A stretch of DNA of 16,622 nucleotides from Candidatus Thorarchaeota archaeon SMTZ1-45 (GTDB taxonomy: Archaea > Asgardarchaeota > Thorarchaeia > Thorarchaeales > Thorarchaeaceae). The stretch spans positions 1 to 16,622 of the forward strand of contig LRSL01000071.1 in the NCBI GenBank assembly GCA_001563335.1. Reading direction: 5' to 3'. Below are positions 1-15,761 of this stretch, in pieces (the first letter of the stretch is position 1; each line of letters starts with the position of its first letter). The translations under genes were made by a program, and so were the position numbers. The notes below the pieces were generated by a model. It made no database searches and was not told the DNA's origin. It worked only from the letters and a program-made list of their open reading frames with translations.

Positions 1-2
1 TG

Positions 3-125
3 TTTCACATTGAGGAACGAAGAGATCCGATTCCTGAAAATGTAGAAGTCTACAAGAAACAATACCCTATCTTTAACAAACTCATAAGCACTGAGATGGG
101 AAACATACTAGAATCAATATCATAG
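3..125 (+). CDS. 3' end of a gene truncated by the window edge; probable FGGY-family carbohydrate kinase C-terminus
   Basis: Frame open from base 3 to TAG at 123-125 reads FHIEERRDPIPENVEVYKKQYPIFNKLISTEMGNILESIS*. The P-x-P-E-N-x-x-x-Y-x-x-x-Y helix pattern resembles FGGY kinase C-termini. Only 40 aa are visible. Confidence 0.45.
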   Translation, partial: FHIEERRDPIPENVEVYKKQYPIFNKLISTEMGNILESIS

Positions 126-191
126 AAGAAAACCCAGACTCCTCGAAATCTTAATCAAAATTACCATGATACCTATCAAGGGGTATTTCGT

Positions 192-722
192 GTGGAAGAA
201 TTCAAAGAAGAGTCCTTAAGAGCTCGTTTTATTATTGTAATAGTGCCAAATCTGATTTTCTTTGTCACTTTGATTATCTCGATATTGCTGGTGCTGCAAC
301 TCTCACTTCCATGGTTTCTCTTTCTTGGAATGGAACTACTTCAACTCCCTCGGCTAATTGAGTTGATTGTAGGACAGGTCTTTGTGATACTCTGCGTAGG
401 TCTAGAAGCATGGGGTGTTACATCAATTAGTATGAATCGAGCACAAGGTAGCGATATTGGTGTCAAAGGATCATCATTAGTTACTACTGGTGCATACTCA
501 TATTGTCGACACCCAATTACTCTTGGCTTTGCTTTTGGGACTCCTGGATTTGGACTTGTTTTTGACTTTGTCCCTCTCCTAATTAATTCAGTTCTCTTCA
601 TACCAATCATGATTGCATTACTCATTTATGAAGAACGGGAGCTTCTCAATCGATTTGGAAACGAGTATATGGTATACAAGCAAAGAGTTCCGCTTCTTAT
701 TCCAAGAAAAAGGATATCTTAG
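192..722 (+). CDS. Isoprenylcysteine carboxyl methyltransferase / phospholipid methyltransferase (ICMT/PEMT, Ste14-like) family membrane protein
   Basis: Several hydrophobic segments, plus LVTTGAYSYCRHP and EERELLNRFGNEYMVYKQRVPLLIP, which match the LvtxGxYxxxRHP and EExxLxxxFGxxYxxYxxxVPxxIP family signatures. GTG start. Confidence 0.85.
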   Translation: MEEFKEESLRARFIIVIVPNLIFFVTLIISILLVLQLSLPWFLFLGMELLQLPRLIELIVGQVFVILCVGLEAWGVTSISMNRAQGSDIGVKGSSLVTTGAYSYCRHPITLGFAFGTPGFGLVFDFVPLLINSVLFIPIMIALLIYEERELLNRFGNEYMVYKQRVPLLIPRKRIS

Positions 723-726
723 AGCT

Positions 727-975
727 TCACTCATCATCTTGTTGGTTATCTTCCCATATCCGACCAAAGAATATGAGTGCCAGAACGAGTTCTGATCCTG
801 ATACATTGCGAGCAATATATTCAATCGATTCGCTGATTCTGTTCTCTTGATCCCATGCGTTTCTAGCGAGGTTAATGATATCTTCAATGCGGTGATCAGG
901 GATATCAAGTGCTTGGTGGAGTTGCTTCACATTGTGATCCTCAATAACAAGTGTACCGAGGTCATATGTGGGCAT
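727..975 (-). CDS. Small acidic hypothetical protein (82 aa, MPTYDLG...QQDDE)
   Basis: Part of the 727..1116 ORF. The ATG at 975-973 has a GGTGA Shine-Dalgarno-like motif upstream (minus strand gtggtgatcttaattATG). The longer 5' extension runs through the glpA upstream region and looks non-coding. Confidence 0.65.
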   Translation of the reverse strand: MPTYDLGTLVIEDHNVKQLHQALDIPDHRIEDIINLARNAWDQENRISESIEYIARNVSGSELVLALIFFGRIWEDNQQDDE

Positions 976-1088
976 AATTAAGATCACCACCCAAAATGAT
1001 GAAAATCTCCTTTTAATGTAATCTTGGCTATCTCCTATCTTTTGATATTCTAATCCAATCCGAAACCTTAGTATTGCACGTAGTTCAA

Positions 1089-1100
1089 CACCTATAGGTG
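1089..1100. promoter_or_regulatory. Perfect 12-bp palindrome CACCTATAGGTG, candidate operator in the divergent region upstream of glpA
   Basis: Palindrome read directly, ending 34 bp before the glpA ATG and lying downstream of a weak BRE/TATA-like CGAAACCTTAGTA (1061-1073). Function is inferred. Confidence 0.3.
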
Positions 1101-1134
1101 AACCTAGAATACTCACTCTTAGGAAAAGATATTC

Positions 1135-2781
1135 ATGAGCGAGTCTGAGTTTGATGTTGTAATAGTTGGTGGTGGAAGCACCGGTACAGCTGTAGCCCGT
1201 GATTGTGCATTGAGGGGTCTTAAGACTCTTTTACTTGAGCGTGATGATATTGCATCTGCTACTGTGGGTACTTGTGCGGGAATGATATCTTCTGGTCTCA
1301 AATATAGAGGCGAGCCAGATATAATGAAGATGTCCTCAACAGAGGTTGTACATCTAAATCGCATAGCACGTCACATAATAATGAAGAATCCCATTGTTGT
1401 TCCACTTCTCGATTTGAATGATGTCGCTAGTGATGGAGAGTACATAGAGGCCTATTCGGAACACGCTGAGGAACGAGATGTTCCAGAAATGATGTTTATC
1501 ACACCAGAGGCAACACGTGAGATTGAACCAATGATACATCCAAACATCATTGCTGGTGTTTACTACGAGGAATTCTTCATCGACCCTTTCCGTTTGTGCC
1601 TTCTTCAAGCTCTTGATGCAAGAAAGCATGGAGCAAAAATCAAAACTTATTGTGAAGTAATTGGTTTTAATATCGTAAGAAATGAGGTTCAGGAAGTTAT
1701 CTTCTATAACCGAATCACTGGAACAACAGAGAAAGTGAGTGCAAAGATAGTTGTAAATGCTGCTGGTCCATGGGCTCATAAGATTGCTAGAATTTGTGGT
1801 GCTGAGCTGGATCTTCGACTCAACAAAGGGGCTCATGTAATTCTTGACAGACGAGTAGTTAATGTTGGGATTACCTCAAGGGCAATCGATGGTCGTTGGA
1901 TCTATCTTTTTCCTCATGAAAATACGACATTACTTGGTACAACCGCATTAGATACATGGGAAGACCCTGATACATTGGTGGCATCCTTTGACGAGATTGA
2001 GTATCTTTTGAAAAGCATTGAGATTGTCATTCCCTCTATTCGTGAAGCACGAATAATTAGAACGATGGCTGGAGTACGCCCTCTCGTGCCTGATTGGAAA
2101 GTTCCTGAGGATAAGGTTACGCGAGGCTATCAAGTTGTTGATCATAATAATGGCTTGATTAGTTTCACAGGCGGAAAACTAGTGATGTGTAGGCATATGG
2201 CTGAAGCAGTCACTGACCTTGTATGCTCAAAATTGGGAATGCATGCGATATGTACAACACACAAGAACCCACTCCCTGGAAATGAAAGCGATGTTGACAT
2301 CGAATCATTATCTGTTGAATTCGGTGTCGCTATGCATGCATTGGAGCGGATGCGTGCTCGTCGTGGTACAGAGATATTAAAGATTCTTGAATTGACGAAA
2401 GACCATCCAGAATGGAAGACCACCATATGCACGTGCGAACCAATTATTGAAGCAGAGATGCGTTATGCAATTCGGGAGGAGTTTCCTCAAACTCTGAATG
2501 ATCTTCGCCGTAGACTGCGTTTAGGCACTGGACCATGCCAAGGAACATTTTGCACATACAAAGCTGCCTCTATACTCGCTGAGGAATTGGATCTAGAAGG
2601 TGATGACTTTCTGGTAGATATACTTGATTTCAGGGCAGAACGATGGAAAGGCATTCGACCGTCAATGAGAGGTGAACAGTTAGCACAGGAAGAATTAGCT
2701 CAAGGCATGTATTCATGTGTGGGAAATCTGGATCAATCTGATGTTGATTACGACCTAAAACCATGGGAGGAGGGAGGATAG
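1135..2781 (+). CDS. glpA: Anaerobic glycerol-3-phosphate dehydrogenase subunit A-like FAD oxidoreductase with C-terminal BFD-like [2Fe-2S] domain
   Basis: DVVIVGGGSTGTAVARDCALRGL FAD-binding start; VVNAAGPWA, KGAHV, LLGTT, AGVRPL and GGKL motifs; C-terminal ICTCE...RLRLGTGPCQGTFC. Followed by glpB- and glpC-like genes. Confidence 0.88.
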   Translation: MSESEFDVVIVGGGSTGTAVARDCALRGLKTLLLERDDIASATVGTCAGMISSGLKYRGEPDIMKMSSTEVVHLNRIARHIIMKNPIVVPLLDLNDVASDGEYIEAYSEHAEERDVPEMMFITPEATREIEPMIHPNIIAGVYYEEFFIDPFRLCLLQALDARKHGAKIKTYCEVIGFNIVRNEVQEVIFYNRITGTTEKVSAKIVVNAAGPWAHKIARICGAELDLRLNKGAHVILDRRVVNVGITSRAIDGRWIYLFPHENTTLLGTTALDTWEDPDTLVASFDEIEYLLKSIEIVIPSIREARIIRTMAGVRPLVPDWKVPEDKVTRGYQVVDHNNGLISFTGGKLVMCRHMAEAVTDLVCSKLGMHAICTTHKNPLPGNESDVDIESLSVEFGVAMHALERMRARRGTEILKILELTKDHPEWKTTICTCEPIIEAEMRYAIREEFPQTLNDLRRRLRLGTGPCQGTFCTYKAASILAEELDLEGDDFLVDILDFRAERWKGIRPSMRGEQLAQEELAQGMYSCVGNLDQSDVDYDLKPWEEGG

Positions 2782-4155
2782 ATGGATACTGAATGCGACC
2801 TTCTTGTCATTGGTGGAGGAATGGCTGGTCTTGTTGCTGGTAGTATCGCTTCAATGGAGGGTGTTTCTACTATTATCCTTCGCAAAGGACAAAGCGCTAC
2901 AGCATATTCATCTGGTGCTGTAGATATTATTGGGTATCTTCCAGGCACATCTGAACCATTCTCATCTCCTACCGAAGGACTCGCAGTTATTGCTGGAGTC
3001 TACCCACTTCATCCCTACAGTATTGTTGGATACAATGAAGATGTTGAAACAGAAAATATTGTCAGTGAAATCATTAGAAGAGCCCAAGATGCTATTACTT
3101 GGCTGAAGATAAATCTTGAAAATACTATTACTCCACTGATAGGAACCTTTGATTCGAATATCTATCCTATCACCGTTTTAGGAACGACAAAACCAACATG
3201 TCTGATTCAAAAGACAATGCATTCTGGAACACTTCAAGAGTGTGAAGATTCCACTCTTCTATTTGCTGGAATCAGAGGTTATGCTGACTTCAATCCATCA
3301 ATCGCAGCCAAGACCTATCTTGAAGACAGAATTGCTATTGGTAAACCGCCTCGTAAGGTTGGACGATGCGTTATACAAATCACTCCATTTGGAAAGCCGT
3401 TCAATCTGTCATCTATTGAGATAGCTAGACATTTGGACCATGAGAAATCCATTGAGGAAATTGCGAAGCAATTGAAAAAACAGGTGGACCAACTAGGGGC
3501 TAGTCATGTAGCAATTCCCCCTGTGCTTGGTCTTAGAAATGCTGTAGCAAATAAGAAGATACTAGAAGAATTGATTGAAGCTGATGTCTTTGAATTATTG
3601 GGTTTTCCACCATCTGTTCCTGGTCTACGGCTTCAAATTGCTCTGGAAGAAATCTACAGAAGGAGTGGTGGCAAGTTATTGGTTGGTCACGAAGCAATAA
3701 GCTATTCTAAGACCGGAAACAAATTGAATTATGTTACAGCTAGAGCTCCTCGTCGAGAGCTAAGAATTAATGCGAAAGCTTTCATCCTTGCCTCAGGGAA
3801 ATTCATTGGAGGTGGGTTGAGTGGCGACTTATCCGGTATGCATGAATCTGTTTTTGGACTGATGACTATCACTGGTGCATATCTCTTAGCCCGCGATATT
3901 ATACCTTCACGGATGACAAACCGTGTTGCAATAAGTCCAGAAGGACAACCTGTCTATTCATGTGGACTATCTGTAGATCCATTCTTTCGACCTGTGAGAG
4001 AGGATGGTGTGGAATGGGCTTCAAACCTCTTTGCTGCGGGGTCAATATTAGCTGGATATGATTATTCCACTGAGAAGAGTGGACTAGGTGTTGCTGCCAC
4101 AAGTGGCTATTCAGCAGCTAGGAGTGCAATTGACTTCATCAAGGAGGTGAATTGA
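2782..4155 (+). CDS. glpB: Anaerobic glycerol-3-phosphate dehydrogenase subunit B
   Basis: DLLVIGGGMAGL, GQSATAYSSGAVD, LGTTKPT, PPSVPGLRLQ, LASGKFIGGGL and NLFAAGSILAGYD...SGLGVA are GlpB-type motifs. GGAGG precedes an ATG that directly abuts the glpA stop. Confidence 0.88.
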   Translation: MDTECDLLVIGGGMAGLVAGSIASMEGVSTIILRKGQSATAYSSGAVDIIGYLPGTSEPFSSPTEGLAVIAGVYPLHPYSIVGYNEDVETENIVSEIIRRAQDAITWLKINLENTITPLIGTFDSNIYPITVLGTTKPTCLIQKTMHSGTLQECEDSTLLFAGIRGYADFNPSIAAKTYLEDRIAIGKPPRKVGRCVIQITPFGKPFNLSSIEIARHLDHEKSIEEIAKQLKKQVDQLGASHVAIPPVLGLRNAVANKKILEELIEADVFELLGFPPSVPGLRLQIALEEIYRRSGGKLLVGHEAISYSKTGNKLNYVTARAPRRELRINAKAFILASGKFIGGGLSGDLSGMHESVFGLMTITGAYLLARDIIPSRMTNRVAISPEGQPVYSCGLSVDPFFRPVREDGVEWASNLFAAGSILAGYDYSTEKSGLGVAATSGYSAARSAIDFIKEVN

Positions 4156-4156
4156 G

Positions 4157-5395
4157 GTGAATGAAGATGAAGCCTATGATTATGTAAAGAGTACGCTTAA
4201 GAAAGAACGAATTACTCCTTATCGTCAAGAAGAGCTTGAGTATGTTAAATCTGTAGAGAACTGCATAAATTGCGGGCTCTGTATAAACCATTGTCCAGTT
4301 GTAGCTGCAGTTGGAGTAAACCGTTTCAGTGGTCCTCGAAGTATCGCTGTTGAATTGAGTCGGTCACCTCCCGAATTCTGGTCCACTGCAGACATTGTAT
4401 ACTTGTGCACCGGATGTGGGACATGTCGTGAAGTTTGCCCTAAAAACGTCAATATTCCTGAAGTGGTCAATATCATACGCTCAAGAATATTCGACCACCG
4501 ACCTGATTTAGTTCCCAAAGGACTCTTTATGGTTCGTGAAATCCTTACTAAACATGATTTGGCATTCGAACCCTGGGAGGACAAGGATGAAAAAACAGAA
4601 AGCAGAAACATGCGACTTGAACGACTCAGGATCCCTTTTGTACCTGACAAATTTCTTGAAAATGCTGAGATAATATTCTATCCTGGTTGTCAAGCAGAGG
4701 AACGCGCTCAGGAGGTTCGTGAAGCGGCAAAGATAATCTTGGACTATTTCGATATTGAGTATACCCTGCTAGAGGACATGTCTTGTTGTGGACTTCCTGC
4801 TCGATTGATTGGTGATGAAGAAACTGCAAGATCATTAGGAATGCAGCTCAAAGAGAAGGTAACGAAGCTTGGAGCAAAAAAGGTGGTTACTACATGCGCT
4901 GGATGCACATCAAACCTGTCCGAAATTTCATACAACTATGATTGGGGCGTCGAAACTGTCCATATTTTAGAATTCATAGCCGAGGACATAGGGTTAGAAC
5001 GATTGAAAGAAGCAACTCACAGAAGTAATGAATTAGCTGACGTGCATGTCACTGTTCATGATCCCTGCCATCTAATTAAACACACATCACGACAGATAAT
5101 GGAACATGCACTAAACATACTACGTCTGCTGGATGGAGTAAGAGTTACAGAGTCTGAAGCTTATGATTCATGTTGTGGTGGAGGAGGATTAGTTTCCTAC
5201 CATGCTAATGATGTGGCTACTGCAGTTGTCAAAGAGAACCTAGAAGCAATCGAGAAAACAGGTGCGGACAGACTGGTGACTCCTTGTCCCTTGTGTACTG
5301 CACAGCTCGAAACTAATCTCTACAAAATAGGCAGTTCCGTTGAAGTTGATGATTTGACTGTGTTCATTGCTCAACGACTTCCTATGAAGAGGTGA
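4157..5395 (+). CDS. glpC: GlpC-like Fe-S subunit (two 4Fe-4S motifs plus two CCG domains; GlpC/HdrD/GlcF family)
   Basis: CINCGLCINHCP and CTGCGTCREVCP; CCG domains YPGC/SCCG/TTCAGC and HDPCH/SCCGGGG/TPCPLC. GTG start with GGAGGTGA at 4143-4150. Position follows glpAB. Confidence 0.78.
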   Translation: MNEDEAYDYVKSTLKKERITPYRQEELEYVKSVENCINCGLCINHCPVVAAVGVNRFSGPRSIAVELSRSPPEFWSTADIVYLCTGCGTCREVCPKNVNIPEVVNIIRSRIFDHRPDLVPKGLFMVREILTKHDLAFEPWEDKDEKTESRNMRLERLRIPFVPDKFLENAEIIFYPGCQAEERAQEVREAAKIILDYFDIEYTLLEDMSCCGLPARLIGDEETARSLGMQLKEKVTKLGAKKVVTTCAGCTSNLSEISYNYDWGVETVHILEFIAEDIGLERLKEATHRSNELADVHVTVHDPCHLIKHTSRQIMEHALNILRLLDGVRVTESEAYDSCCGGGGLVSYHANDVATAVVKENLEAIEKTGADRLVTPCPLCTAQLETNLYKIGSSVEVDDLTVFIAQRLPMKR

Positions 5396-5402
5396 ATCAT
5401 AT

Positions 5403-6830
5403 TTGCTTGATAATAAAACAAGAATGAAGTTATTCAAGCGAATAACAAAGATTCTGAGCAACGAACATGTCACCATGCATGAAACTGACCAGATACTAAA
5501 TGCACATGATGCATGGCCTCTGAGCGAAGCGAAAATTCGATCTGGAGAAGTTCTCCCCCTTGCTGACCTAATCGTATTTCCTGAATCCGTTGATGAAGTT
5601 TCAAAAATTCTTGTTATTGCTAATGAGCTGAAACTTCCAATTGTTCCTGTTGGAGGTGGCGCAGGGACATGTGGCGGCACGTTACCTATCTATGGCGGAA
5701 TTCAACTAGACTTGAAACGTATGAACAAAATCATAGAAATCGATCATAAGTCTATGTTAGTACGAGTTCAAGCAGGAGTCATTGGAATTGACCTTGAGGA
5801 AGAGGTAAACCGTTTAGGTTATACAACTGGTCATACACCAACTTCACTTCGTGCTTCAAACATTGGAGGATTTATTGCAACAAGATCAGGTGGCTCAATG
5901 TCCTCTCTATATGGGAAGATTGAGGATTTAACATTAGGCCTTCAGGTTGTGCTACCTAATGGTTCTATTATTGAAACAAAGGCTATTCCACGACATTCCG
6001 TTGGTCCTGACCTTCGTCAATTATTCATTGGCTCAGAGGGAACCCTAGGAATCATCACAGAAGCAACCATGAAGCTTTTTCCATTACCTGAAGATAGAAG
6101 GTTCAGGAGCGTTAGCTTTCCTGATGTACATAGTGGACTTGAGGCAATTCGCAAAATCTTTCGAGTAGGTATTCTTCCATCTGTTGTGCGCCTCTATGAC
6201 CCTGAAGATGCTGCATTCAGCTTCTCTATGCACTTTGAGTTTGAAGAGGGACACTGTATGCTTCTTCTTGCTTTTGATGGAGCTAGTAAGAAAATAGACA
6301 TCGATGAAAAGCAGGCTGTTCGAATTTGTCTAGAGGAGGGAGGAACAGATCATGGAGAAGGACCATCCAAACGATGGTGGGAACATCGATATGACATGTA
6401 CTATCCAACTCGTTTAACTACTGCTGGATTTGCAATAGGTGATACTATCGATATCGTAGCCACATATGATAAACTAGAGAGTGTCTATTATGCGATGAAG
6501 GATGCCATGGAAGCAGAAGATGCGGTAGTCATGTCTCATTTCTCACATATGTATCAGAATGGCGGTAGTATCTACATGATCTTCTTTACTTCACAACCCG
6601 ATGCAGAAACTGCTTGGGCTACTTACAAGAAAATCTGGGATGCTGGCGTATATGCATGTCATCGTGAAGGAGGTACAATGAGTCATCAACATGGAGTTGG
6701 ACTCTCCCGTAGTACTTATACCGAAGATGAATTGGGATCAAGTTTTGGTGTATTGAAGAAAATCAAAGAGGTTCTGGACCCCAATTGTATAATGAATCCA
6801 GGAAAACTTGGGTTGGGGGTGCGTAAATGA
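5403..6830 (+). CDS. FAD-binding oxidoreductase (VAO/PCMH fold), alkyl-dihydroxyacetone-phosphate synthase (AGPS)-like
   Basis: GHTPTS...IGGFIATRSGG...YGKIEDL, PRHSVGPDLRQLFIGSEGTLGIITEA, VVRLYD, GGSIY, SHQHGVG and LDPNCIMNPGKL. TTG start with GAGGTGA upstream. Confidence 0.8.
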   Translation: MLDNKTRMKLFKRITKILSNEHVTMHETDQILNAHDAWPLSEAKIRSGEVLPLADLIVFPESVDEVSKILVIANELKLPIVPVGGGAGTCGGTLPIYGGIQLDLKRMNKIIEIDHKSMLVRVQAGVIGIDLEEEVNRLGYTTGHTPTSLRASNIGGFIATRSGGSMSSLYGKIEDLTLGLQVVLPNGSIIETKAIPRHSVGPDLRQLFIGSEGTLGIITEATMKLFPLPEDRRFRSVSFPDVHSGLEAIRKIFRVGILPSVVRLYDPEDAAFSFSMHFEFEEGHCMLLLAFDGASKKIDIDEKQAVRICLEEGGTDHGEGPSKRWWEHRYDMYYPTRLTTAGFAIGDTIDIVATYDKLESVYYAMKDAMEAEDAVVMSHFSHMYQNGGSIYMIFFTSQPDAETAWATYKKIWDAGVYACHREGGTMSHQHGVGLSRSTYTEDELGSSFGVLKKIKEVLDPNCIMNPGKLGLGVRK

Positions 6831-7951
6831 TAGAACAAGACAAAATAGCTGAGCAAGTACGAATGTGCGCAGCTTGTCCAAAGATGTGTCGACATGTATG
6901 CCCAACATTCTTCGCATGGAGATCAGATGCTCCAACACCTCATGGTCGTGCTCTATTGCTTCACCAAGAAATTGTCGGAACTCGTAAAATAGATGAACGT
7001 GGAGTGGAGGTTTTATACCAATGTCTTGAGTGTAGTCATTGCCTTACTTGGTGCAAACCTGAGATTGACATAGCTACATTTGTTGAACTTAAACGACAAG
7101 AACTAGTAAAATCGGGGCAACAGCCTAAGGGTATATCGCAGCTGACAAGTCTGGTATCTGCAATGCACAATCCCTTTGACGAAGACCACTCTAAACGAAA
7201 TATGTGGATTAAAATTAGTAAATCGAAGGGACCTAAGGTCTTGTATTTCACCGGATGCACAGCAGCTTATAGAGAGAAAGATAGTGCTCAAGATACTGTA
7301 TACCTTCTTGAGCTTCTTGGATATTCTGTAGAAGTCACGCCTGATGAATGGTGTTGTGGCAGTCCACTTATCAGAACAGGAGATATTGAAACAGGGCTTA
7401 AACAAGCAGCTCATAATGTTGAGGTTCTGAACCGTGTCGATGCAGAAGAGATTTTGGTCACTTGCCCTGGATGCTATCGTGTCCTTACGACTGATTACAC
7501 TGAGAATGGATATGTACTCAATAAACCGGTCCTACACATAAGTGAATTCTTGGCTAAATCCTTGGATAAACTTCCAGTAGGAAAATGCGATAGGCTCGTT
7601 TCATTTCACGATCCATGTCATCTTGGTCGTCACTCTGGCATTTATCAAGCACCTAGAGATGTGATTACGCAAGTATGTGGCGTTGCTCCGGTCGAAATGG
7701 ATCGGAACAAAGAGAACGCAATGTGCTGTGGAAATGGAGCAGGACTTCGGACCTTATTTCCAGAGTATGCAAAGAAGATAGGCGCTGAACGAATACGTCA
7801 AGCAAAGAATGTTGACGCGAAATATCTTGTAACATCCTGCCCATTTTGCAAGGAAATGTTAGACGCACAATCAGATGAATTACTCACAGTTCTTGATTTA
7901 CCAGAATTTGTAATGCAGTTTGGCAAGGGCCGCGATGTGAAAACAGATTAG
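6827..7951 (+). CDS. Second CCG-domain Fe-S oxidoreductase subunit (GlcF/GlpC/HdrD-like)
   Basis: CAACPKMCRHVCP, CLECSHCLTWC, YFTGC, WCCG, VTCPGC, FHDPCHLGR, MCCGNGAG and TSCPFC. ATGA overlap with the AGPS-like gene. Confidence 0.85.
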   Translation: MIEQDKIAEQVRMCAACPKMCRHVCPTFFAWRSDAPTPHGRALLLHQEIVGTRKIDERGVEVLYQCLECSHCLTWCKPEIDIATFVELKRQELVKSGQQPKGISQLTSLVSAMHNPFDEDHSKRNMWIKISKSKGPKVLYFTGCTAAYREKDSAQDTVYLLELLGYSVEVTPDEWCCGSPLIRTGDIETGLKQAAHNVEVLNRVDAEEILVTCPGCYRVLTTDYTENGYVLNKPVLHISEFLAKSLDKLPVGKCDRLVSFHDPCHLGRHSGIYQAPRDVITQVCGVAPVEMDRNKENAMCCGNGAGLRTLFPEYAKKIGAERIRQAKNVDAKYLVTSCPFCKEMLDAQSDELLTVLDLPEFVMQFGKGRDVKTD

Positions 7952-7970
7952 GAAATGAAATCAGGTTTCT

Positions 7971-9098
7971 GTGACAAAGATGGACGCTGAAGAAGTACTT
8001 CGACTCAAGGTACGTTTGTTAACAGAAGGTGCTAGTCTTCCTGAAGGTCATTATAAAGGTCGAAAGGGCGGTGCAGGACCAGTTGGTGGAAGGTATTTCA
8101 TTCTTCCAAACAATCGGCCTTGTGGAATCCCAATAAGGCAGGGTGAAATGGCAAAGAAGTACAAATCTGCATCACTTGAACCAACGGATGATCCAAGAAT
8201 TTGGATTTATGATAATGAAATTGAACTAAAAAGTGTTCCACGACCTAGGTTCTATAACCGAAAAACCGAGGATGAAGTTCCATACTATAAGATTGCATTA
8301 CTGCATGGTTCTAAAACCCTAGCCACTACAGTATATCAAGCATGTAGATATTGGAAAAATGGGGCTCAGTGCAAGTTCTGCACAATCCCCACATCACACC
8401 TGTCAGATGATACCATTCTAGAAAAAGCTCCTGAACAAATTGTTGAGGTACTACTTGCAGCAATAGATGAGGGTGTTGTTGCTGATGTTCTATTAACAAC
8501 GGGAACTCCTGACACTCATGATGTTGGTCTAAAGCGTCTGATGAGTATACTTGAAGCCATTAGGGAAGTTAGTAGCATTCCAATTGGTATTCAGTTTGAA
8601 CCTCTTGTGGATAATAATATGATTCGAGACGTGTGGAATGCGGGTGCGAACGCAGTTGGAATTCATATTGAAAGTGCGGATGAAACCATTAGAGAAGAAA
8701 TGTGCCCTGGCAAGTTCCAATATGGTTCTCTAGAGATGTACCATAGAAGTTGGCAATCAGCGCTTCAGTACTTTGGGAGAGGCAATGTCAGCACATTTTT
8801 ACTACATGGACTTGGAGAGGATACTGGTCGAACACTATCACTTGCGCAAGAACTTGCTGAGGTGGGTGTACTCCCTGTTATTACTCCGGTTCGTCCATCA
8901 CATGGAAGTCAATTAGCGAACTATATTCCTACATATGTTGACAATTTGGAAAACTCCATTGACCTTTACAAGAAACTTGGAATCATTCTATACATGAACA
9001 GATTGAACCCTGAAAACACAGCTGCTGGCTGTCACAAATGTGGTGGTTGCACACCGGACCAAGAAGCATATGACTGGGCAGCTGAAAATCAGAGTTGA
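7971..9098 (+). CDS. Radical SAM protein, MSMEG_0568/Sll0785-like family (start may be the ATG at 7980)
   Basis: RKGGAGP N-terminal motif, IALLHG..TLATTVYQAC, non-canonical CX8CX2C (8343-8381), LLTTGT, VGIHIES and C-terminal AGCHKCGGC. Confidence 0.8.
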   Translation: MTKMDAEEVLRLKVRLLTEGASLPEGHYKGRKGGAGPVGGRYFILPNNRPCGIPIRQGEMAKKYKSASLEPTDDPRIWIYDNEIELKSVPRPRFYNRKTEDEVPYYKIALLHGSKTLATTVYQACRYWKNGAQCKFCTIPTSHLSDDTILEKAPEQIVEVLLAAIDEGVVADVLLTTGTPDTHDVGLKRLMSILEAIREVSSIPIGIQFEPLVDNNMIRDVWNAGANAVGIHIESADETIREEMCPGKFQYGSLEMYHRSWQSALQYFGRGNVSTFLLHGLGEDTGRTLSLAQELAEVGVLPVITPVRPSHGSQLANYIPTYVDNLENSIDLYKKLGIILYMNRLNPENTAAGCHKCGGCTPDQEAYDWAAENQS

Positions 9099-9637
9099 TG
9101 CATAAACCTAGAAGTTATAGCCCTGAACACCTCCTGTATCTGTCGAGAATCATGGAAGAGTATCCTGCTGAAGAAATCCGAGTCATTGAGTTTGAAGAAG
9201 AAGATGCAAATGATATAGCAGAGCTTTTTCGACAGGTTTGGCCGCTGGCTGTTGAGTATCCTGAGCACTGGCGAAAAAAGAGGATTTACACTCCTGAACA
9301 AATTATCAATGAAATGAGGAATGGATTTCACTTCTTCGGAAGTCGGCTTCAAGGACAGATTGTAGGGGTGTATAAAGCAAAGATAACCGACAAAGGTCTC
9401 TATGGAGAGCATCAAACTGTCCGTCCTGAATGTCGTGCAACAGGACTTGCATCTGCTATGTACATTCAGTTTGCAGAATATGGAAGAGCTCATGGATGCA
9501 AGCGGAATTATTGCAACATTTTAGTCGGACAGGAAATTGGTGAAAAGCTCATGAAGAAGTTTGGTTTCCGACCTTGGGGAGAACCATATGAGCAAGCAGA
9601 GGGAATGCTAGTTCAGATGTATGAACGTTCTTTGTGA
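9098..9637 (+). CDS. GNAT-family N-acetyltransferase
   Basis: Motif A-like VRPECRATGLASAM and C-terminal KLMKKFGF. ATG at 9098 overlaps the radical SAM stop (TGATG). The ORF track starts at TTG 9095. Confidence 0.78.
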   Translation: MHKPRSYSPEHLLYLSRIMEEYPAEEIRVIEFEEEDANDIAELFRQVWPLAVEYPEHWRKKRIYTPEQIINEMRNGFHFFGSRLQGQIVGVYKAKITDKGLYGEHQTVRPECRATGLASAMYIQFAEYGRAHGCKRNYCNILVGQEIGEKLMKKFGFRPWGEPYEQAEGMLVQMYERSL

Positions 9638-9647
9638 TTTCCTTCTT

Positions 9648-11306
9648 CTAGGCTGGTAGATGCAAATACTTCAGATATGTAAGAACTTCATAGAAGTATT
9701 TACCTCCAAAAAGACCACTGGTCTTTAATCCTCCTAGGTGTGGATAATAATCGTCAAAATGTAAATGGTCTGTATTCACTGCAATACCTGGTGCTTCTAT
9801 TTCATCAAAGAAACGCTGCCATATCTCAGGGTCCTCACTATAAACTGAAGTTCGAAGGCCGTATGGTGTGTTGTTTGCCTGAGTAATTGCCTCTTCAAAT
9901 GAATTGATTTTCATAATTGGTAAAACTGGTCCAAAAGTTTCATGATACCACATTTTGCAGTCCAATGGAACATTGCTAAGAATCGTTGGTTTTAAGAAAA
10001 GACCAGAATCATCACGCTCCTCCTGAGCATTTAATCGATATCCTCCTGATTCTAGTTTTGCACCCTTACTTAGCGCCTCATTTATCATGTCGATATTCTG
10101 ATAAAGTGCACGTGTACCAATGACTGGCAAATCTGTATTTGGATCTTCTGGGAGACCAACGGTCAATTTTTGGCTCTTCTCTATGAGGGCGTCAATAAAA
10201 TCATCATAAATTGTTTCATGTAAGAATAGTCGCTTTGCTGCCAAACAAATCTGTCCCGAACCAAAGAAACGCGCATGACTTACATATTCCGCCACTTTTT
10301 CTATCTCAACATCTTTCCACACAAGACTGGCACCACTTCCAGCTAACTCTGGAATGAAATGTAGCCCTCTTCTTATAGCTTGAGACATTAATTTAAGACC
10401 AATATCTGAATCACCATAGTATACCATTGCATTCAGTGGAGACTCATTCACCATATATTGTGCAATACTTTGAGCTGGTCCAATTACAGACTGAAATGCA
10501 CTTTGTGGGAAGTCCAGTTCATTCATCGCTTCCGTCAATACATATGCTAGCTCCATATTAGTGAGAGGCATCCGCGATGGAGTTCTTGTGACCGTCGCAT
10601 TCCCAGCCCAGTAACTGGAAAGAATTGCCATTCCACCTAACCCAATTGCTACATTATAGGGTGGAAAAATCCCCACAGCCCCGAATGGATAGCGACTGAG
10701 GATAGTGCGTTCTCCTTCTTTTGAGCAAGGAATCTCCTTTGACTCAATCTTGGAAGTTGCGAACTCTATGTGGTCTTTGTATAGTGTTTTGAATACTCCT
10801 GTCGCTTGCCAGTCAAACAACTTCACGGGAGTACCCTCAGCAATCCCAATCTCCTTGAAGTTGTCAAAATGCTTCCAGAGTATCTCTCCAACTTTGATAA
10901 GACTTTCAGCTCGTTCTCTGAGCGTAAGACCCTTTCCCTTCTCGTTATACTCTCTATGCATTAGGTGACGAACGGAGTGAGCTTCCTCACATGCCTCAAC
11001 TGTTTCCTTTACTCCACCTATGGCATACTCAGCAAACATCATTTCCTGAATTTCATCTCTCGAAGCTTGTGGATATCCATGTACTCTGATGTAATCCTTT
11101 AGCAACCGTATTTCAGGTGTCTTGCTTGGAAACTGATTTGAAAAATAACGAGCCGCAAACCTGCTTAATGATCCCTGCTCTTTGAGAGCCATTGCATAAA
11201 GAAGTCTAGGATCCCCAATCACTATGTTCATGTTTGGAAAGAAACTAGTCTTTCCCTCAACAGGTTTTAATATTTCACCCTTGATGAGATGCCCAAAGAA
11301 ACGCAT
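9648..11306 (-). CDS. Aldehyde dehydrogenase family protein (divergent)
   Basis: RYPFGAVGIFPPYN, GNATV, catalytic ELAG (Glu) and GQIC (Cys354), ETFGPV and ANNTPYGL. AAGGAG upstream of the ATG. Confidence 0.88.
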   Translation of the reverse strand: MRFFGHLIKGEILKPVEGKTSFFPNMNIVIGDPRLLYAMALKEQGSLSRFAARYFSNQFPSKTPEIRLLKDYIRVHGYPQASRDEIQEMMFAEYAIGGVKETVEACEEAHSVRHLMHREYNEKGKGLTLRERAESLIKVGEILWKHFDNFKEIGIAEGTPVKLFDWQATGVFKTLYKDHIEFATSKIESKEIPCSKEGERTILSRYPFGAVGIFPPYNVAIGLGGMAILSSYWAGNATVTRTPSRMPLTNMELAYVLTEAMNELDFPQSAFQSVIGPAQSIAQYMVNESPLNAMVYYGDSDIGLKLMSQAIRRGLHFIPELAGSGASLVWKDVEIEKVAEYVSHARFFGSGQICLAAKRLFLHETIYDDFIDALIEKSQKLTVGLPEDPNTDLPVIGTRALYQNIDMINEALSKGAKLESGGYRLNAQEERDDSGLFLKPTILSNVPLDCKMWYHETFGPVLPIMKINSFEEAITQANNTPYGLRTSVYSEDPEIWQRFFDEIEAPGIAVNTDHLHFDDYYPHLGGLKTSGLFGGKYFYEVLTYLKYLHLPA

Positions 11307-11433
11307 TAGAAATTCAGTTCTCCTTTGATTTGTGTGTTCCAGTCAGTTTTGGTCGGCGAAGAGAGGAGATTTAAGAGCTTCTAATCTGGGAACATCGATG
11401 GTCCTAATCAAATCTGTCTTGAGGTGTGTTCAA

Positions 11434-13461
11434 ATGACAATTATGAATGATGAAGAATTGCTATATACAAAGGAAGAGCTTGAATTTCGCCTAAAAGTAC
11501 GTGAGTGGGTGGAAAAAGAAATCAGACCTCTGGCAGATAAGATAACAGATCCAGATTTTGACTATCGCAACTTTTTCAGGAAACTAGGTGAATTTGGTCT
11601 TTCAAGACTCTTGATACCCAAGAAATATGGTGGTTCTGAAAAACCATTCATGTATCAGCTACTCGCTGGTGAAGAAATCTCTGCAGTTTGCCCCTCTGCA
11701 ACCATGATGTTTGGAGCAAGTTGCACTCTCTCAGCAATTCCAATACTTCGATTTGGAACAGAAGAACAAAAGGAGAAGTATCTAGTTCCATTAGCAAAGG
11801 GAGAGAAAATTGGCGCATTGGCTATCACAGAACCGAAGGTAGGTAGTGATACTGCTGGGATGGTTACAAGCGCAAGATGGGACGAGAGCGAAGATTGTTG
11901 GATTCTAAATGGTGAAAAACGATACATAACAAATGGTAGCATCGCAGATCAGATTGTTGTTTTTGCTATCACAGATTCGACAGTTGAAAGTAAGAGCGGC
12001 ATGTCCGCCTTCATCATTGAAACCTCATGGAATGGATTCAAGGTTGAGAAAGACTTCAACCTGATGGGACGTGATGGAGTTCGCGTTTCTCATATCAGCT
12101 TCAGTAATCTAAAGGTGCCTAAAGATAATCTTCTTGGAAAATTGAATCAAGGTTTTCTAATCCTGATGAATGAACTAGATTCTGAAAGGGTTGGGATTGC
12201 TGCTGAAGCAATTGGTTGTATGCGGACCCCGTTCGAGATTGCTGTAAAATATTCTCAAGAACGTGAACAGTTTGGTCAACCGATTTCGCGTTTCGAAGCT
12301 GTTTCTTTCAAGGTTGCTGATATGGCTATGAAAATGCGAGCTGCAAGATTATTGCTAATTTCAGCGGCAAGAATGATTGAGAAGGACTTCCCATGTACAA
12401 AGGAAGCTACAATTGCAAAGCTCTATGCAAGCGAGGTATCAGTGGAATGCTGCGATATGGCAATACAGATTTGCGGAGGTGCTGGATATGTCAAAGATTT
12501 CTACCCTCTTGAGAGATTCTATAGAGATGCTCGTTTGGGTACAATAGGTGGTGGAACTTCGGAGATTTTGCGGTTCCTCATTCAAAGAGAGGTCTACATA
12601 GAGAGCAGACGCGACTCATCTGTCCGTGTATCACAAGAAGTTGACGACTTGGATTTTGATGTTATGATGAGTAGCATCCCAAATGGATTTAGACCAGACC
12701 GTTCTGAAGGTGTATCAGCCATCATTCATTTCGATTTTGATGACACTGACTCATGGATTCTGAAGATTGATAATCAGAAATGTGTAATTGAAAAGGGGGA
12801 AATTAACAAACCAGACATGACTGTAAAAACTGACTCCTTTACCTGGCGCAATATTCTACTTGGAAAACTTGATGCTATGCAAGCAATGATGACTGAGAAA
12901 GTCGCTATTGATACTGATGATATGGAACTTCTGATGAAATTTGCTAGAATGTTCAGATTCACTCCAGACATACTCCGAGGAGTGACCAAACTTGAAGAAC
13001 ATAAAGATGTGAAGAAGGAGGTTGCTGAGGAGTCAAAGTTTGAACTCGGTAAGAGTTTGGATGAGCTCGAAATAGGGGACACCGCAGAATCCACAATGTT
13101 GGTTACAGATGAACACATCCAATTGTATGCAGAAATGTCAGGAGATTATAATGCACTTCATATGAATGACGAATATGCAGCTACGACAATGTTCGGAAAA
13201 CGAATTGCGCATGGACCCATTGGTGGTGCTTTGGTTGCAAGGATAATTGGCACACAATTACCTGGACTGGGAACTTTAGCATTCAATATGAAAGTCAATT
13301 TCAAAGCACCCGTCTATCCTGGTGATGAGATTCGGGCAGTCGTTGAGGTTACAGAAAAGGTGCCAGAAGACAATCTGTGTCGGCTTAAATTCGATGTCTA
13401 CAATAATGATGGAATAATCGTTATGGATGGCTACGCTAACGTCATGCCTCCAATTAAATAA
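11434..13461 (+). CDS. Fusion protein: acyl-CoA dehydrogenase + SCP2 sterol/lipid-binding domain + MaoC/PhaJ (R)-enoyl-CoA hydratase
   Basis: ACAD (about 11434-12600): ALAITEPKVGSD, LNGEKRYITNG, REQFGQPI, YRDARLGTIGGGTSEI. SCP2 (about 12655-12960): KPDMTVKTDSFTWRNILLGKLDAMQAMM. MaoC (about 13050-13458): SGDYNALH...FGKRIAHG, FKAPVYPGD. Start placed at ATG 11434 because GAGGTG lies at 11421-11426. Confidence 0.88.
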   Translation: MTIMNDEELLYTKEELEFRLKVREWVEKEIRPLADKITDPDFDYRNFFRKLGEFGLSRLLIPKKYGGSEKPFMYQLLAGEEISAVCPSATMMFGASCTLSAIPILRFGTEEQKEKYLVPLAKGEKIGALAITEPKVGSDTAGMVTSARWDESEDCWILNGEKRYITNGSIADQIVVFAITDSTVESKSGMSAFIIETSWNGFKVEKDFNLMGRDGVRVSHISFSNLKVPKDNLLGKLNQGFLILMNELDSERVGIAAEAIGCMRTPFEIAVKYSQEREQFGQPISRFEAVSFKVADMAMKMRAARLLLISAARMIEKDFPCTKEATIAKLYASEVSVECCDMAIQICGGAGYVKDFYPLERFYRDARLGTIGGGTSEILRFLIQREVYIESRRDSSVRVSQEVDDLDFDVMMSSIPNGFRPDRSEGVSAIIHFDFDDTDSWILKIDNQKCVIEKGEINKPDMTVKTDSFTWRNILLGKLDAMQAMMTEKVAIDTDDMELLMKFARMFRFTPDILRGVTKLEEHKDVKKEVAEESKFELGKSLDELEIGDTAESTMLVTDEHIQLYAEMSGDYNALHMNDEYAATTMFGKRIAHGPIGGALVARIIGTQLPGLGTLAFNMKVNFKAPVYPGDEIRAVVEVTEKVPEDNLCRLKFDVYNNDGIIVMDGYANVMPPIK

Positions 13462-13507: not shown

Positions 13508-14833
13508 ATGAAATCTAAGGACCAATCTATTGACAGGAGCAATCATTCAGCAGGAAATGAAGATCTTGAAGCTCTGATACGATATGATGAATCAAGACTT
13601 TCAATGAAGTCATTACTTCGAGAAATACAAACCGCATCAGACTCTCAATATCATTCAAGGTCACTTCCACTATCTGTGATTAGATATAGAAATACAATCG
13701 ATTACATTCTGACCAAGTCTCTAGGTCAATTGGATTTTAATGAGTTGAATTCATTTGATAGGAATTTTCTCCGTTTGGCAATCTATGAACTTAGATGGCT
13801 TAATGTAAATCTTGATCATTTCAAATCAAAATACCCTCAAATTACTTCTCGCTATGAAGAAGTGCTCAAGCGTTCACTTGTTTTTGATTTGGATGCCACA
13901 GTAAGGAAGCTACCACTTGTAAACCAGTACAGCCTGAAGTACTCACACCCGTCATTCATTGTGCAAACTCTTCTCGATAACATGTCATCTGAAGATTGCA
14001 TTCATTTGTTGAAAAGCAATAATAGTTCGCGAGTTTATTACTTACGACCAAACAAGCTGCATGAAGGTTATAGCACATTCATTAATTCTCTGACTGGTGT
14101 TAAATTGGAACCAGACTCCCTTGTTCCTGAAATCTATCGTATTAATACAGGTATTGATGAAGTTGTCAAATCCGCTCTCTTCAGAGAGGGAAAGATATTG
14201 ATTCAAGATAAAGCTAGCATTCTCGTTGTTAACGCGCTTGATCCTCATCCAGGACAGAAAGTGTGGGATGCTTGTGCAGCACCTGGAATGAAGACTCAAT
14301 TAATTGCAGAGCGAATGAAAGGACATGGCTGTCTAGTTGCAAGTGATGTTTACCCACATCGTGTGAAAATGGCAAGAGAGCTTTCCAAGAAACTCAATAC
14401 TGAACATACTGAATGGACTCACTCTGATGCAACAAGACCGGAATTCAGGGATGCGGATAAGATACTCATTGATGCGCCATGCACTTCAACTGGAATTCTT
14501 CAATCTTATCCTTCATTCAAATGGCGATTAAACAAGGAAGCACTCTTTGCCTTAATGGCTATCCAGAACAAGATTCTTGATGGTATTCTCTCTGCGTATT
14601 CTGAAAGACCAGGCACAGAAATAGTATATGCGACTTGTTCTATTCTACCGCATGAAGGTGAGTCACAAATAGATTCTGCTTTGGAGCGTCATAACATTGA
14701 ACTGATGGACCCCCTCGACTATGGAGATTTTGGATATCCTAAGTTCAAATGTACTCAGAAAGTCCGCAGGGTTTTTCCTCACAAGCATGAATGTAGTGGA
14801 TTCTTCATTTCTCGACTTAGAATCAAGCATTGA
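13508..14833 (+). CDS. RsmB/NOP2/NSUN-family RNA m5C methyltransferase with NusB-like N-terminal domain
   Basis: LRLAIYEL (NusB-like), YSHP, QDKAS, motif I DACAAPGMKT, motif IV DAPCTSTG, motif VI YATCS and GFFISRL. Confidence 0.9.
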   Translation: MKSKDQSIDRSNHSAGNEDLEALIRYDESRLSMKSLLREIQTASDSQYHSRSLPLSVIRYRNTIDYILTKSLGQLDFNELNSFDRNFLRLAIYELRWLNVNLDHFKSKYPQITSRYEEVLKRSLVFDLDATVRKLPLVNQYSLKYSHPSFIVQTLLDNMSSEDCIHLLKSNNSSRVYYLRPNKLHEGYSTFINSLTGVKLEPDSLVPEIYRINTGIDEVVKSALFREGKILIQDKASILVVNALDPHPGQKVWDACAAPGMKTQLIAERMKGHGCLVASDVYPHRVKMARELSKKLNTEHTEWTHSDATRPEFRDADKILIDAPCTSTGILQSYPSFKWRLNKEALFALMAIQNKILDGILSAYSERPGTEIVYATCSILPHEGESQIDSALERHNIELMDPLDYGDFGYPKFKCTQKVRRVFPHKHECSGFFISRLRIKH

Positions 14834-15761
14834 TTCTTCGTTCAACCGACTCCATAACCCTTCTAGCAAACTCTCTGTCATCCTTGAAGGACCATGGAAT
14901 CTCTAGAAACAGTTTGCTTGCTGTTATCATGAGGTCTTTGTCACGATTAATCTGAATCTTGAAGATTAATTTTGTCCATTCAAAACAAGGATGTTCTTGG
15001 AAAGTTTGATTTTCTCCTGATTCAGAGGCAATCTTTGCGAGATATGCCATTCCTTCTTTTGGCTTTCCAAGCATAAGATCCGCAAGTGCTCCCATGCAAG
15101 CAAGAGTCACTGCATTTTTTACCATTCCAGATTTAATGTAAGACGCGGCTCCATCTTTGTATTCTTCAGCCTTCTTTGAATAGAGAGAACGACCATGACT
15201 AATTACCAAATCTCTATTTTCATCTTTGGAACCTGCTTTTCTAAGTGTGACACCTCCCAGAACTGCTGCCTTTAGCTCTGCCTGCATTTCTGTTGTAGGT
15301 TTGAGCTTAGATAACTTGTCAATCTTCTCTATAAGGCTCTCTCCAGCTTTGACAAGTTCATGTTTTGTGTCTGGATTACTAAGAGAAGGATCCCTTTCAG
15401 CAATACCTTCTTCATATACACCTCTTGCTGTACAGAATAAGTCGTAAGCTTTCTCAATCAAGTCATTTTTGTATGCGAAGTTAATTGCTTTAATATAGAC
15501 ATCAATTGCATTGTCTATTTCACCCAGATTTTCAAACTGTGTTGCTGATTCAATCAACCAAGGGAATGCGTCTGTGCTATTCGAATCAATTGCGTCTTGC
15601 GCTCGTGCTAGAGAACTATAGGCATCAATACATATTGTAGCAAGCTCGGGTCTTTTGCATTTAGAATTGACTTCTACCTTTGGAAGTTTCTGACCCCGAA
15701 GCCTACAATATGGATCATCTTCTGATGCACCTAACCAAGTGCACCTTCCTTCAGTAGCCAA
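14823..15761 (-). CDS. Hypothetical alpha-helical (TPR/SNAP-like) protein with Cys-rich N-terminus and a WH2-like motif
   Basis: 312-aa ORF with TTG start and protein-like composition. TPR-like helices (ESATQFENLGEIDNAIDVYIKA; ALADLMLGKPKEGMAYL). Convergent 11-bp overlap with the methyltransferase. Confidence 0.7.
   Translation of the reverse strand: MATEGRCTWLGASEDDPYCRLRGQKLPKVEVNSKCKRPELATICIDAYSSLARAQDAIDSNSTDAFPWLIESATQFENLGEIDNAIDVYIKAINFAYKNDLIEKAYDLFCTARGVYEEGIAERDPSLSNPDTKHELVKAGESLIEKIDKLSKLKPTTEMQAELKAAVLGGVTLRKAGSKDENRDLVISHGRSLYSKKAEEYKDGAASYIKSGMVKNAVTLACMGALADLMLGKPKEGMAYLAKIASESGENQTFQEHPCFEWTKLIFKIQINRDKDLMITASKLFLEIPWSFKDDREFARRVMESVERRINA

Follow-up and report, generated by a model that had tools for sequence, protein, structure and literature searches.

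The window analyzed here, i.e., the whole 16,622-base contig C71 of a Thorarchaeota metagenome-assembled genome (MAG) that is 87.7% complete, carries a conserved pathway operon, which is more than a chance neighborhood and in which an FGGY-family kinase, a GlpABC-type dehydrogenase, a flavoprotein resembling alkyldihydroxyacetonephosphate synthase (AGPS), and an iron–sulfur (Fe-S) protein with CCG domains are encoded one after another. Sequence comparisons place the flavin adenine dinucleotide (FAD) enzyme encoded at 5403-6830 in the AGPS clade, and it is predicted to bind its CCG neighbor. To our knowledge, AGPS is known solely as a non-redox, ether-bond-forming enzyme of eukaryotes and myxobacteria; the window protein falls in a large prokaryotic sister group that combines the AGPS active-site pattern with electron-transfer partners, a sugar-type kinase, and a glycerol-phosphate-type dehydrogenase. 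The pathway linkage among these genes is well supported. That they form a route from kinase to GlpABC to AGPS-like/CCG pair, in which a redox variant of AGPS chemistry acts on a ketone of the dihydroxyacetone phosphate (DHAP) type, we regard as about an even call. The analysis itself shows the gene identities, the motifs, the synteny, the linkage to kinase and GlpA/GlpD genes, and a predicted AGPS-like/CCG complex; what the route acts on and makes, which way its electrons flow, and what finally accepts them we infer. A sequence-only reading of the same stretch had assigned the locus to the processing of ether lipids. Comparative evidence supports the logic that it proposed (kinase, then GlpA-family dehydrogenase, then AGPS-type enzyme) but not its lipid substrate, its non-redox release of an alcohol, or its beta-oxidation tail. 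The operon consists of the following genes:

3-125, + strand: C-terminal end of the FGGY-family kinase (last 40 residues; remainder on contig C107)
1135-2781, + strand: GlpA-type FAD/2Fe-2S dehydrogenase subunit (DAO, DAO_C, and Fer2_BFD domains)
2782-4155, + strand: GlpB-type flavoprotein subunit (TIGR03378 above cut-off)
4157-5395, + strand: GlpC-like Fe-S subunit (Pfam Fer4_8 and two CCG domains; ferredoxin-like dicluster)
5403-6830, + strand: AGPS-clade (YgcU-like, short-form) VAO-family flavoprotein (FAD_binding_4 and FAD-oxidase_C)
6827-7951, + strand: CCG-domain Fe-S partner of the AGPS-like protein (CCG2; Fer4_8 and two CCG domains)
7971-9098, + strand: variant radical SAM protein, near the MSMEG_0568 family (by TIGR04043 and NF045502 scores)
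9098-9637 (from 9095 with the alternative start), + strand: GNAT acyltransferase (Acetyltransf_1)

Genes were called from a list of open reading frames (ORFs) together with Pfam and NCBIfam scans of the window, and the results match the genes and coordinates of the sequence-only reading. The spacings also agree (0, 1, 7, −4, and 19), the last one being −1 if the GNAT gene begins at ATG 9098 and −4 if it begins at TTG 9095. Because the first of these starts creates a TGATG overlap, the GNAT gene is translationally coupled to the radical SAM gene; the AGPS-like and CCG2 genes overlap by 4 nt. No membrane segments are predicted in the operon proteins. A promoter and terminator scan found fewer sites than in shuffled sequences, with bacterial models that are ill-suited to an archaeal host, and the sequencing runs that hold the stretch are DNA only, from marine sediment and seawater, with no RNA run listed.

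What kind of flavoprotein is encoded at 5403-6830? In a phmmer search against solved structures, AGPS entries scored highest (2uuu, 223 bits; 4bby, 217 bits), ahead of LctD (155 bits) and LDHD (145 bits). Residues R263, H379, S381, Y391, and H428-Q-H430 align with the Arg, Tyr, and His-His-His positions of AGPS, such that RLYD, HFSHMYQNGGSIY, and SHQHG stand opposite what we take to be the AGPS active site (R419, Y578, and the His-His-His loop 615-617 of the Cavia enzyme). All 22 sequences compared have R263 and Y391; the loop reads SHQHG in the window genus, and most of the phylum's other families have SHHHG. A motif table of 95 sequences split the homologs cleanly into an AGPS type and a D-lactate dehydrogenase (D-LDH) type. 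The D-LDH-type homologs from the same retrieval (n = 18) carry ExxD, GHxGDGNxH, and SGEHG—the latter two presumably providing metal and substrate ligands—whereas the window protein has HFSHMYQNGGSIY and SHQHG in their place. Both the structure scores and the Arg/Tyr/His-x-His pattern bear out the earlier description of the enzyme as AGPS-like, and the replaced motifs argue that it is probably not a plain 2-hydroxyacid dehydrogenase.

Within the AGPS clade, the window protein is a short form. It has 475 residues, compared with 658 and 584 for the AGPS chains, and it lacks the AGPS N-terminal domain: positions 26-44 of the query align with residue 178 (Cavia) or 128 (Dictyostelium). In a FastTree phylogeny of 90 sequences, rooted on the D-LDH type (with 5 partial sequences left out and only the last 560 residues kept of any ORF >700 residues), a long-form group holds Bacteroidales, actinobacteria, Myxococcota, and others, with a Bacteroidales member reaching 297 bits to AGPS. 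The short-form group holds the window protein together with sequences from other Asgard archaea, Bathyarchaeota, Thermoplasmatales, Chloroflexota, Firmicutes, Acidimicrobiia, and Afipia, as well as a Lentisphaerae/Kiritimatiellae subclade with NEHHG.

Some homologs have unusual structures. Proteins of ~940-990 residues from Myxococcota/Deltaproteobacteria (P0122-P0192 and others) are apparent tandem duplications of the AGPS-type unit, matching ~54% of the query at ~45% identity, and adjacent double copies occur at two loci (L078 and L100). The window's own genome has 14 sequences that match the FAD enzyme, and several adjoin CCG proteins; those on contigs C7, C41, C86, and C1 belong to a large D-LDH-type family of flavoprotein/Fe-S dehydrogenase pairs. 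The matches to the radical SAM protein in four other Asgard genomes (G102, G140, G158, and G156) and to the AGPS-like protein in one (G040) each contain one in-frame stop codon (TAA or TGA), which could reflect a broken gene, an alignment edge, or stop-codon recoding.

Does the enzyme work with the Fe-S protein encoded next to it? The two are predicted to form a complex, with an ipSAE of 0.93 compared with 0.00 for the best control, a mark that 58 of 80 solved complexes reach, as do 2 of 110 mismatched pairs. Three modeling runs share at least 94% of the contacts, the partner pLDDT is at least 91, and the Fe-S domain of CCG2 (residues 9-78) contacts the FAD domain in the model. A CCG gene sits at position +1 in 26 of 74 loci, and in some Bacillota the two are fused, with four clusters of AGPS-type proteins carrying Fe-S domains, three of them CCG plus Fer4_8 (motifs confirmed in two). 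An Acidobacteriota MAG has a single 940-residue ORF (L060:4274-7096; DNA ~50% G+C) comprising Fer4_8, two CCG, BON, DAO, and BFD domains, which joins a CCG protein to a GlpA/FngA subunit and is followed downstream by genes for FngB-like, DUF1667, and DAGK-type kinase proteins. Two DAO–AGPS “fusions” (P0230 and P0234), in which an Arg/Pro-rich junk linker takes the place of DAO_C, were rejected as probable read-through artifacts, as were over-long ORFs in the high-GC loci L053 and L058.

Electron-transfer partners also accompany a short-form member in Escherichia coli K-12. YgcU is 30% identical to the AGPS-like protein over its full length and carries the motifs RLYD, HSSHSYQNGTNMY (H.SH.Y..G...Y), and VHHHG. 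Its neighbors (L114, ygcN to ygcE) include the FGGY kinase YgcE, the alpha and beta subunits of an electron transfer flavoprotein (ETF; YgcQ/R), and the ETF-QO-like YgcN, besides the G3P-antiterminator-family protein YgcP, sugar MFS transporters, and an SDR protein. The predicted binding, the fused forms, and the ETF neighbors of YgcU together point to net redox chemistry. AGPS itself performs no net redox chemistry, according to the relevant passage of one paper (PMC13019191, citing Nenci 2012); the Fe-S partner, as seen in sequence and model, argues that the window enzyme differs from the acyl/alkyl exchange of AGPS in this respect. The non-redox alcohol release envisaged in the sequence-only reading gives the Fe-S protein no role, though it is predicted to be bound, is fused in some Bacillota, and is replaced by ETF in E. 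coli.

How far does the association with a kinase and a GlpA-family dehydrogenase extend? The order kinase–GlpABC–AGPS-like–CCG–radical SAM–GNAT is kept in all seven same-genus loci and in nine of 10 loci from other genera of the family, so the neighborhood that had been read as a functional unit is indeed conserved at its core. Among seven loci from other families of the phylum, all have the AGPS-like/CCG pair; GlpABC lies ahead of the pair in three, an FngABC-like set adjoins it in one, and a kinase is found within six genes in six. Beyond the phylum, one genome was taken per species, which gave 80 loci (62 AGPS-type and 18 D-LDH-type). As indicative counts, the AGPS-type loci have an FGGY kinase in 21 cases, GlpA/GlpD in 19, and either in 30, and the D-LDH-type loci in 0, 1, and 1, respectively; 14 of the 62 AGPS-type and 14 of the 18 D-LDH-type loci include a CCG protein. 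Because CCG proteins occur with both types and kinase/GlpA-family genes almost only with the AGPS type, the latter linkage is specific to the AGPS type. Examples include GlpD–AGPS–kinase in Bacteroidales and Lutibacter, GlpD–AGPS(–kinase) in Acidimicrobiia, and GlpABC–AGPS–CCG in an Anaerolineae MAG, with the partner dehydrogenase being GlpABC, FngABC-like (DAO + Pyr_redox_2 + DUF1667), or GlpD-like depending on lineage. The kinase, GlpA-family, and AGPS-type enzymes travel together across phyla, as the earlier scheme would have it, and this fits an AGPS-like enzyme that acts on a DHAP-type ketone.

Could the operon instead encode ordinary glycerol catabolism beside an independent GlcD/GlcF-type 2-hydroxyacid (D-lactate or glycolate) dehydrogenase, perhaps as a methylglyoxal bypass that includes the nearby aldehyde dehydrogenase (ALDH)? 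The FAD_binding_4 plus CCG architecture is that of GlcDF, the top NCBIfam match of the AGPS-like protein is GlcD (217 bits), CCG genes are frequent at D-LDH-type loci, many such pairs exist in the genome, and the best model for the ALDH is lactaldehyde dehydrogenase. The GlcD score is, however, far below its cut-off of 567.9, and GHxGDGNxH and SGEHG have given way to the AGPS pattern. Also against this possibility are a kinase that is not GlpK, the near-absence of kinase/GlpAD linkage from D-LDH-type loci, and the lineage in which the CCG partner is fused to a GlpA/FngA subunit. We judge it unlikely.

The kinase gene is split by the assembly, the contig break falling within the operon. The reverse-complemented end of contig C107 overlaps the first bases of the window (1-26) and supplies the first 457 residues of the kinase, with 81% identity to the corresponding protein from a same-genus genome; this overlap identifies the gene that ends at 125, which the sequence-only reading had called a probable FGGY kinase tail, as the end of an FGGY kinase. 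By its sequence, the operon kinase is of the sugar type and is not a GlpK ortholog. Five orthologs from the conserved cluster score 154-223 bits on the GlpK model TIGR01311 (cut-off 590), their best models are XylB, LsrK, and GntK (gluconokinase), all below cut-off except in Afipia, and the nearest solved relative is LsrK (191 bits). A profile search of this incomplete genome found no GlpK over the TIGR01311 cut-off, the best match being 355.9 bits on another contig. GlpA and GlpB are present in one copy in the genome (tblastn), this GlpA being the sole GlpA-family gene found. The lack of GlpK and the single GlpA/GlpB copy agree with Manoharan et al. 2019 (PMC6737245), available passages of which state that most “glpK” genes of Loki- and Thorarchaeota are carbohydrate kinases and that glpAD and glycerol-1-phosphate dehydrogenase (G1PDH) are present.

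The dehydrogenase itself departs from the canonical models. The domain architectures of its three subunits fit GlpABC, and GlpB exceeds its cut-off (TIGR03378, 227.3 bits vs. 174.15), with GlpA below (TIGR03377, 413.6 vs. 552.8) and the GlpC-like protein below on both GlpC models (125.3 vs. 278 and 77.1 vs. 279.9), its top model being TfrB (176.7 bits). According to the accessible parts of the FngABC paper, GlpABC is nearly confined to Gammaproteobacteria and haloarchaea and tied to quinone, electron bifurcation to NAD and quinone is proposed for it, and many GlpA/FngA homologs probably take polyols other than glycerol; these parts contain no mention of AGPS-like or Asgard genes.

The view that GlpA/FngA homologs often take other polyols also lends some weight to a scheme with two parallel dehydrogenases, GlpABC on sn-glycerol-3-phosphate and the AGPS-like/CCG pair on sn-glycerol-1-phosphate (G1P) or another polyol phosphate, which would both yield DHAP or interconvert isomers. 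Each flavoprotein has a CCG subunit of its own, the fusion of CCG with GlpA/FngA hints at shared electron wiring, and one Chloroflexia locus has an Fe-ADH_2 (G1PDH-family) gene placed between its kinase and AGPS-type genes. The Tyr/His/Arg pattern, however, is that of an enzyme acting on the alpha-carbon of a ketone and not of the alcohol-oxidizing D-LDH type, and most of the bacteria in which the kinase/GlpA-family/AGPS-type triad occurs are not known to require G1P. As the genome already contains a G1PDH-family gene, we keep such a racemase-like redox loop as a minor rival only, and we consider the parallel scheme very unlikely.

The genes around and at the end of the operon are less uniformly kept. 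Besides the operon, the window contains:

192-722, + strand: PEMT/ICMT-family membrane methyltransferase (three hydrophobic segments)
727-1116, − strand: 129-residue ORF with no Pfam match, antisense between kinase and GlpA
9648-11306, − strand: ALDH with ~120-residue N-terminal extension (Aldedh)
11332-13461, + strand: ACAD-SCP2-MaoC triple fusion of 709 residues (by Pfam/NCBIfam domains)
14823-15761, − strand: 312-residue ORF (faint MIT-domain match)
15908-16288, + strand: PDCD5-like dsDNA-binding protein (domain match)

Radical SAM and GNAT together are a family-specific add-on to the operon, seen attached in this archaeal family only. The radical SAM gene adjoins the operon in 7/7 genus and 9/10 family loci, and homologs occur in 96 of 151 genomes of the phylum; in eight loci from other families it occupies a different part of the genome, with GNAT beside it in three of the eight. 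The protein scores below cut-off on TIGR04043 (272.2 vs. 303.7 bits) and above it on NF045502 (135.5 vs. 125), with no solved relative detected by sequence, and the GNAT gave no match to the MSMEG_0567-type model at E ≤ 0.001. The ALDH, which had been named as an operon neighbor, is mostly conserved in that position, adjoining GNAT in six of seven genus loci (five co-oriented) and seven of 10 family loci; relatives mostly have it on the same strand after GNAT. No NCBIfam model reaches cut-off for it (the lactaldehyde dehydrogenase model scores 213-242 bits).

Two other neighbors are not conserved. The PEMT gene looks like a local insertion, being absent from all seven same-genus loci and present between kinase and GlpA in this genome only. 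The ACAD-SCP2-MaoC fusion, on which the beta-oxidation tail of the sequence-only scheme depended, is whole in one of seven genus loci, survives as a 67-residue remnant in a second, and is found in 0 of 10 family loci, which suggests that it was inserted and later deleted; the genome with the 67-residue remnant also retains a 30-residue ALDH remnant. The 129-residue ORF is 42-63% identical in most family loci, its start lying 18 bp from that of GlpA, and in one genome without it the kinase abuts GlpA. Most relatives also have the 312-residue ORF and the PDCD5-like gene in this position downstream of RsmB, and both resemble housekeeping genes with no connection to the operon.

What might the substrate be? 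The contexts of short-form members are mainly those of soluble carbohydrates: a sugar-type ABC transporter in Acidimicrobiaceae, a LacI-type regulator in Afipia, and elsewhere fucose-isomerase-like and KduI/IolB genes, a PfkB kinase, and GH2, GH31, and GH4 glycosidases. Hints of lipid are fewer, namely DAGK-type kinases (DAGK_cat + YegS_C) in three loci (Acidobacteriota, Rhodococcus, and Nocardia) and one BON domain. We therefore rank a small glycerol-type polyol, perhaps substituted at O-1, above long-chain ether lipids.

The original proposal of a lipid substrate held that the operon breaks down glyceryl ether lipids without O2, with the kinase and GlpABC producing alkyl-DHAP, the AGPS-like enzyme releasing the alcohol, and ALDH and beta-oxidation degrading the chain. 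The AGPS-type enzyme and the conserved triad accord with it, as do the three loci in which DAGK-type lipid kinases replace the kinase, the BON domain in the Acidobacteriota fusion, and the marine sediment habitat. Much speaks against it: the alcohol dehydrogenase and acyl-CoA ligase that it calls for are not present, the ACAD fusion is not kept, the operon proteins lack predicted membrane segments, the short-form relatives lie among sugar genes, the AGPS N-terminal domain is missing, and the Fe-S partner is left without a role. FGGY kinases are sugar kinases—the one here is nearest to LsrK—and the mammalian alkylglycerol kinase, in the source passages available, belongs to another family. We find this breakdown route decidedly unlikely. 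The related claim that the AGPS-like/Fe-S pair is the core of an O2-independent cleavage of the C1–O bond of glyceryl ethers or 1-O-substituted glycerols, which the kinase and a GlpA-family dehydrogenase would first convert to a 1-O-substituted DHAP and whose substituent would then be expelled by flavin-N5 carbanion chemistry coupled to the Fe-S clusters, we likewise hold to be quite improbable. If true, it would be an anaerobic counterpart of alkylglycerol monooxygenase (AGMO) extending from Asgard archaea to E. coli, and the C1–O cleaving module could act as an electron sink or source and so enable GlpABC to work without quinone.

Nor does the reverse direction, which the sequence-only reading had also allowed, fare well. 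A genuine biosynthetic AGPS would turn operon-derived DHAP into alkyl-DHAP for G3P-based ether lipids in an Asgard archaeon. The active-site pattern is retained, JGI labels the orthologs alkyldihydroxyacetonephosphate synthase, and a Black Sea study, in the passages at hand, calls Agps matches in archaeal MAGs a surprise. Yet the PF01553 acyltransferase has 0 matches in the 87.7%-complete genome, and PF07993 (fatty-acyl reductase, FAR) has weak matches only, on ORFs of 308-344 residues; the N-terminal domain is missing, and neither the kinase nor the Fe-S partner has a role in such a pathway. The genome has a G1PDH-family gene to serve normal archaeal lipids, in agreement with the PMC6737245 passages, and a 2026 paper on plasmalogen origins reports, in the part available, that AGPS phylogeny is uninformative and that plasmalogens are absent in archaea. 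We give the biosynthetic reading hardly any weight.

How, then, might a redox variant of AGPS chemistry proceed? The non-GlpK FGGY kinase would phosphorylate a small glycerol-type polyol (glycerol, or glycerol with a substituent on O-1), and the GlpABC-type flavin/Fe-S dehydrogenase would oxidize C-2 to give DHAP or 1-substituted DHAP. The AGPS-clade enzyme would then act on C-1 of the ketone by the AGPS route, with Tyr removing the C-1 proton and the carbanion adding to flavin N5. Unlike AGPS, it would do so while tightly bound to a CCG Fe-S subunit of its own and would resolve the adduct with net transfer of two electrons. We favor an oxidative outcome, in which C-1 would become an aldehyde (i.e., a 2-oxo-aldehyde phosphate), the O-1 substituent, if any, would depart as an alcohol once water adds, and the neighboring ALDH would convert the aldehyde to an acid. 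In E. coli, the two other Fix-like ETF sets have reductases as their partners, so electrons could flow in either direction.

Several observations weigh against this proposal. The window genus carries His-Gln-His where AGPS and the other families carry His-His-His, and the mechanism draws on AGPS residue roles that were reportedly established by Nenci et al. in 2012. Resemblance to solved flavoprotein/Fe-S complexes may have favored the predicted complex. Kinship among the genomes means that the locus counts are indicative only and overstate the number of separate events. The window ALDH lies on the opposite strand and is only 36-40% identical to the co-oriented ALDH of relatives. The literature searched gives no function for YgcU and no substrate for any short-form member. 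Finally, electrons may flow the other way, and a reductive role would suit a fermenter that lacks an obvious acceptor for two dehydrogenases.

The operon nonetheless points to a missing reaction in glycerol/polyol metabolism, apparently encoded by marine-sediment anaerobes, Asgard archaea, and E. coli K-12 (ygcU). If the substrate is a glyceryl ether, the reaction would account for oxygen-free recycling of ether lipids; if the substrate is DHAP itself, the reaction would be a new branch of anaerobic glycerol metabolism and would bear on electron disposal by GlpABC-type enzymes. In the literature searched, the scope of which excluded supplements that may hold gene tables, neither the AGPS-like/CCG pair nor its linkage to kinase and GlpA-family genes is described, and “Thorarchaeota” and “alkyldihydroxyacetonephosphate synthase” are not mentioned jointly.

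How does the operon compare with known systems? The closest characterized enzyme is AGPS (EC 2.5.1.26; eukaryotes and myxobacteria), which is the best solved relative, shares the VAO-type two-domain fold family and the aligned Arg, Tyr, and His-x-His positions, and is linked to DHAP supply; the window protein differs in having no N-terminal domain, in the HQH loop of its genus, and in its Fe-S partner, and its genome yielded no acyltransferase partner and no clear fatty-acyl reductase. The 2-hydroxyacid dehydrogenases of the GlcD/GlcF and fused FAD/CCG types (glycolate oxidase, D-lactate dehydrogenase, and YdiJ) likewise pair or fuse a flavoprotein of the same superfamily with a protein of ferredoxin-like plus two CCG domains, but they carry GHxGDGNxH and SGEHG, and kinase or GlpA/D linkage is seen in only one of 18 loci of that type. 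GlpABC of E. coli and haloarchaea and FngABC of Pyrococcus have GlpA-, GlpB-, and GlpC-type subunits in the same order as here, whereas the window GlpA and GlpC fall under the equivalog cut-offs for GlpABC, the window kinase is not GlpK, and other lineages pair the AGPS-type gene with FngABC-like genes. In the erythritol-type route (Brucella EryA/EryB), an FGGY kinase is followed by a GlpD-like polyol-phosphate dehydrogenase to give a keto-sugar phosphate; the succession of a kinase and a GlpA/D-family flavoenzyme is shared, but that route has no AGPS-type enzyme, and its downstream isomerases are not seen in the window. With AGMO, described in the source passages available as an O2- and tetrahydrobiopterin-dependent membrane enzyme of another family, the outcome (glyceryl ether cleavage) is shared only if the C1–O cleavage reading holds. 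The E. coli ygcNOPQRSUW-yqcE-ygcE cluster shares AGPS-type motifs, an FGGY kinase, and electron-transfer partner genes with the window operon, differing in that ETF alpha/beta and an ETF-QO-like protein stand in place of the CCG protein and that a GlpA-family gene is lacking. The cluster offers a possible laboratory model for the enzyme family, and the existence of an E. coli member makes the question open to standard genetics.

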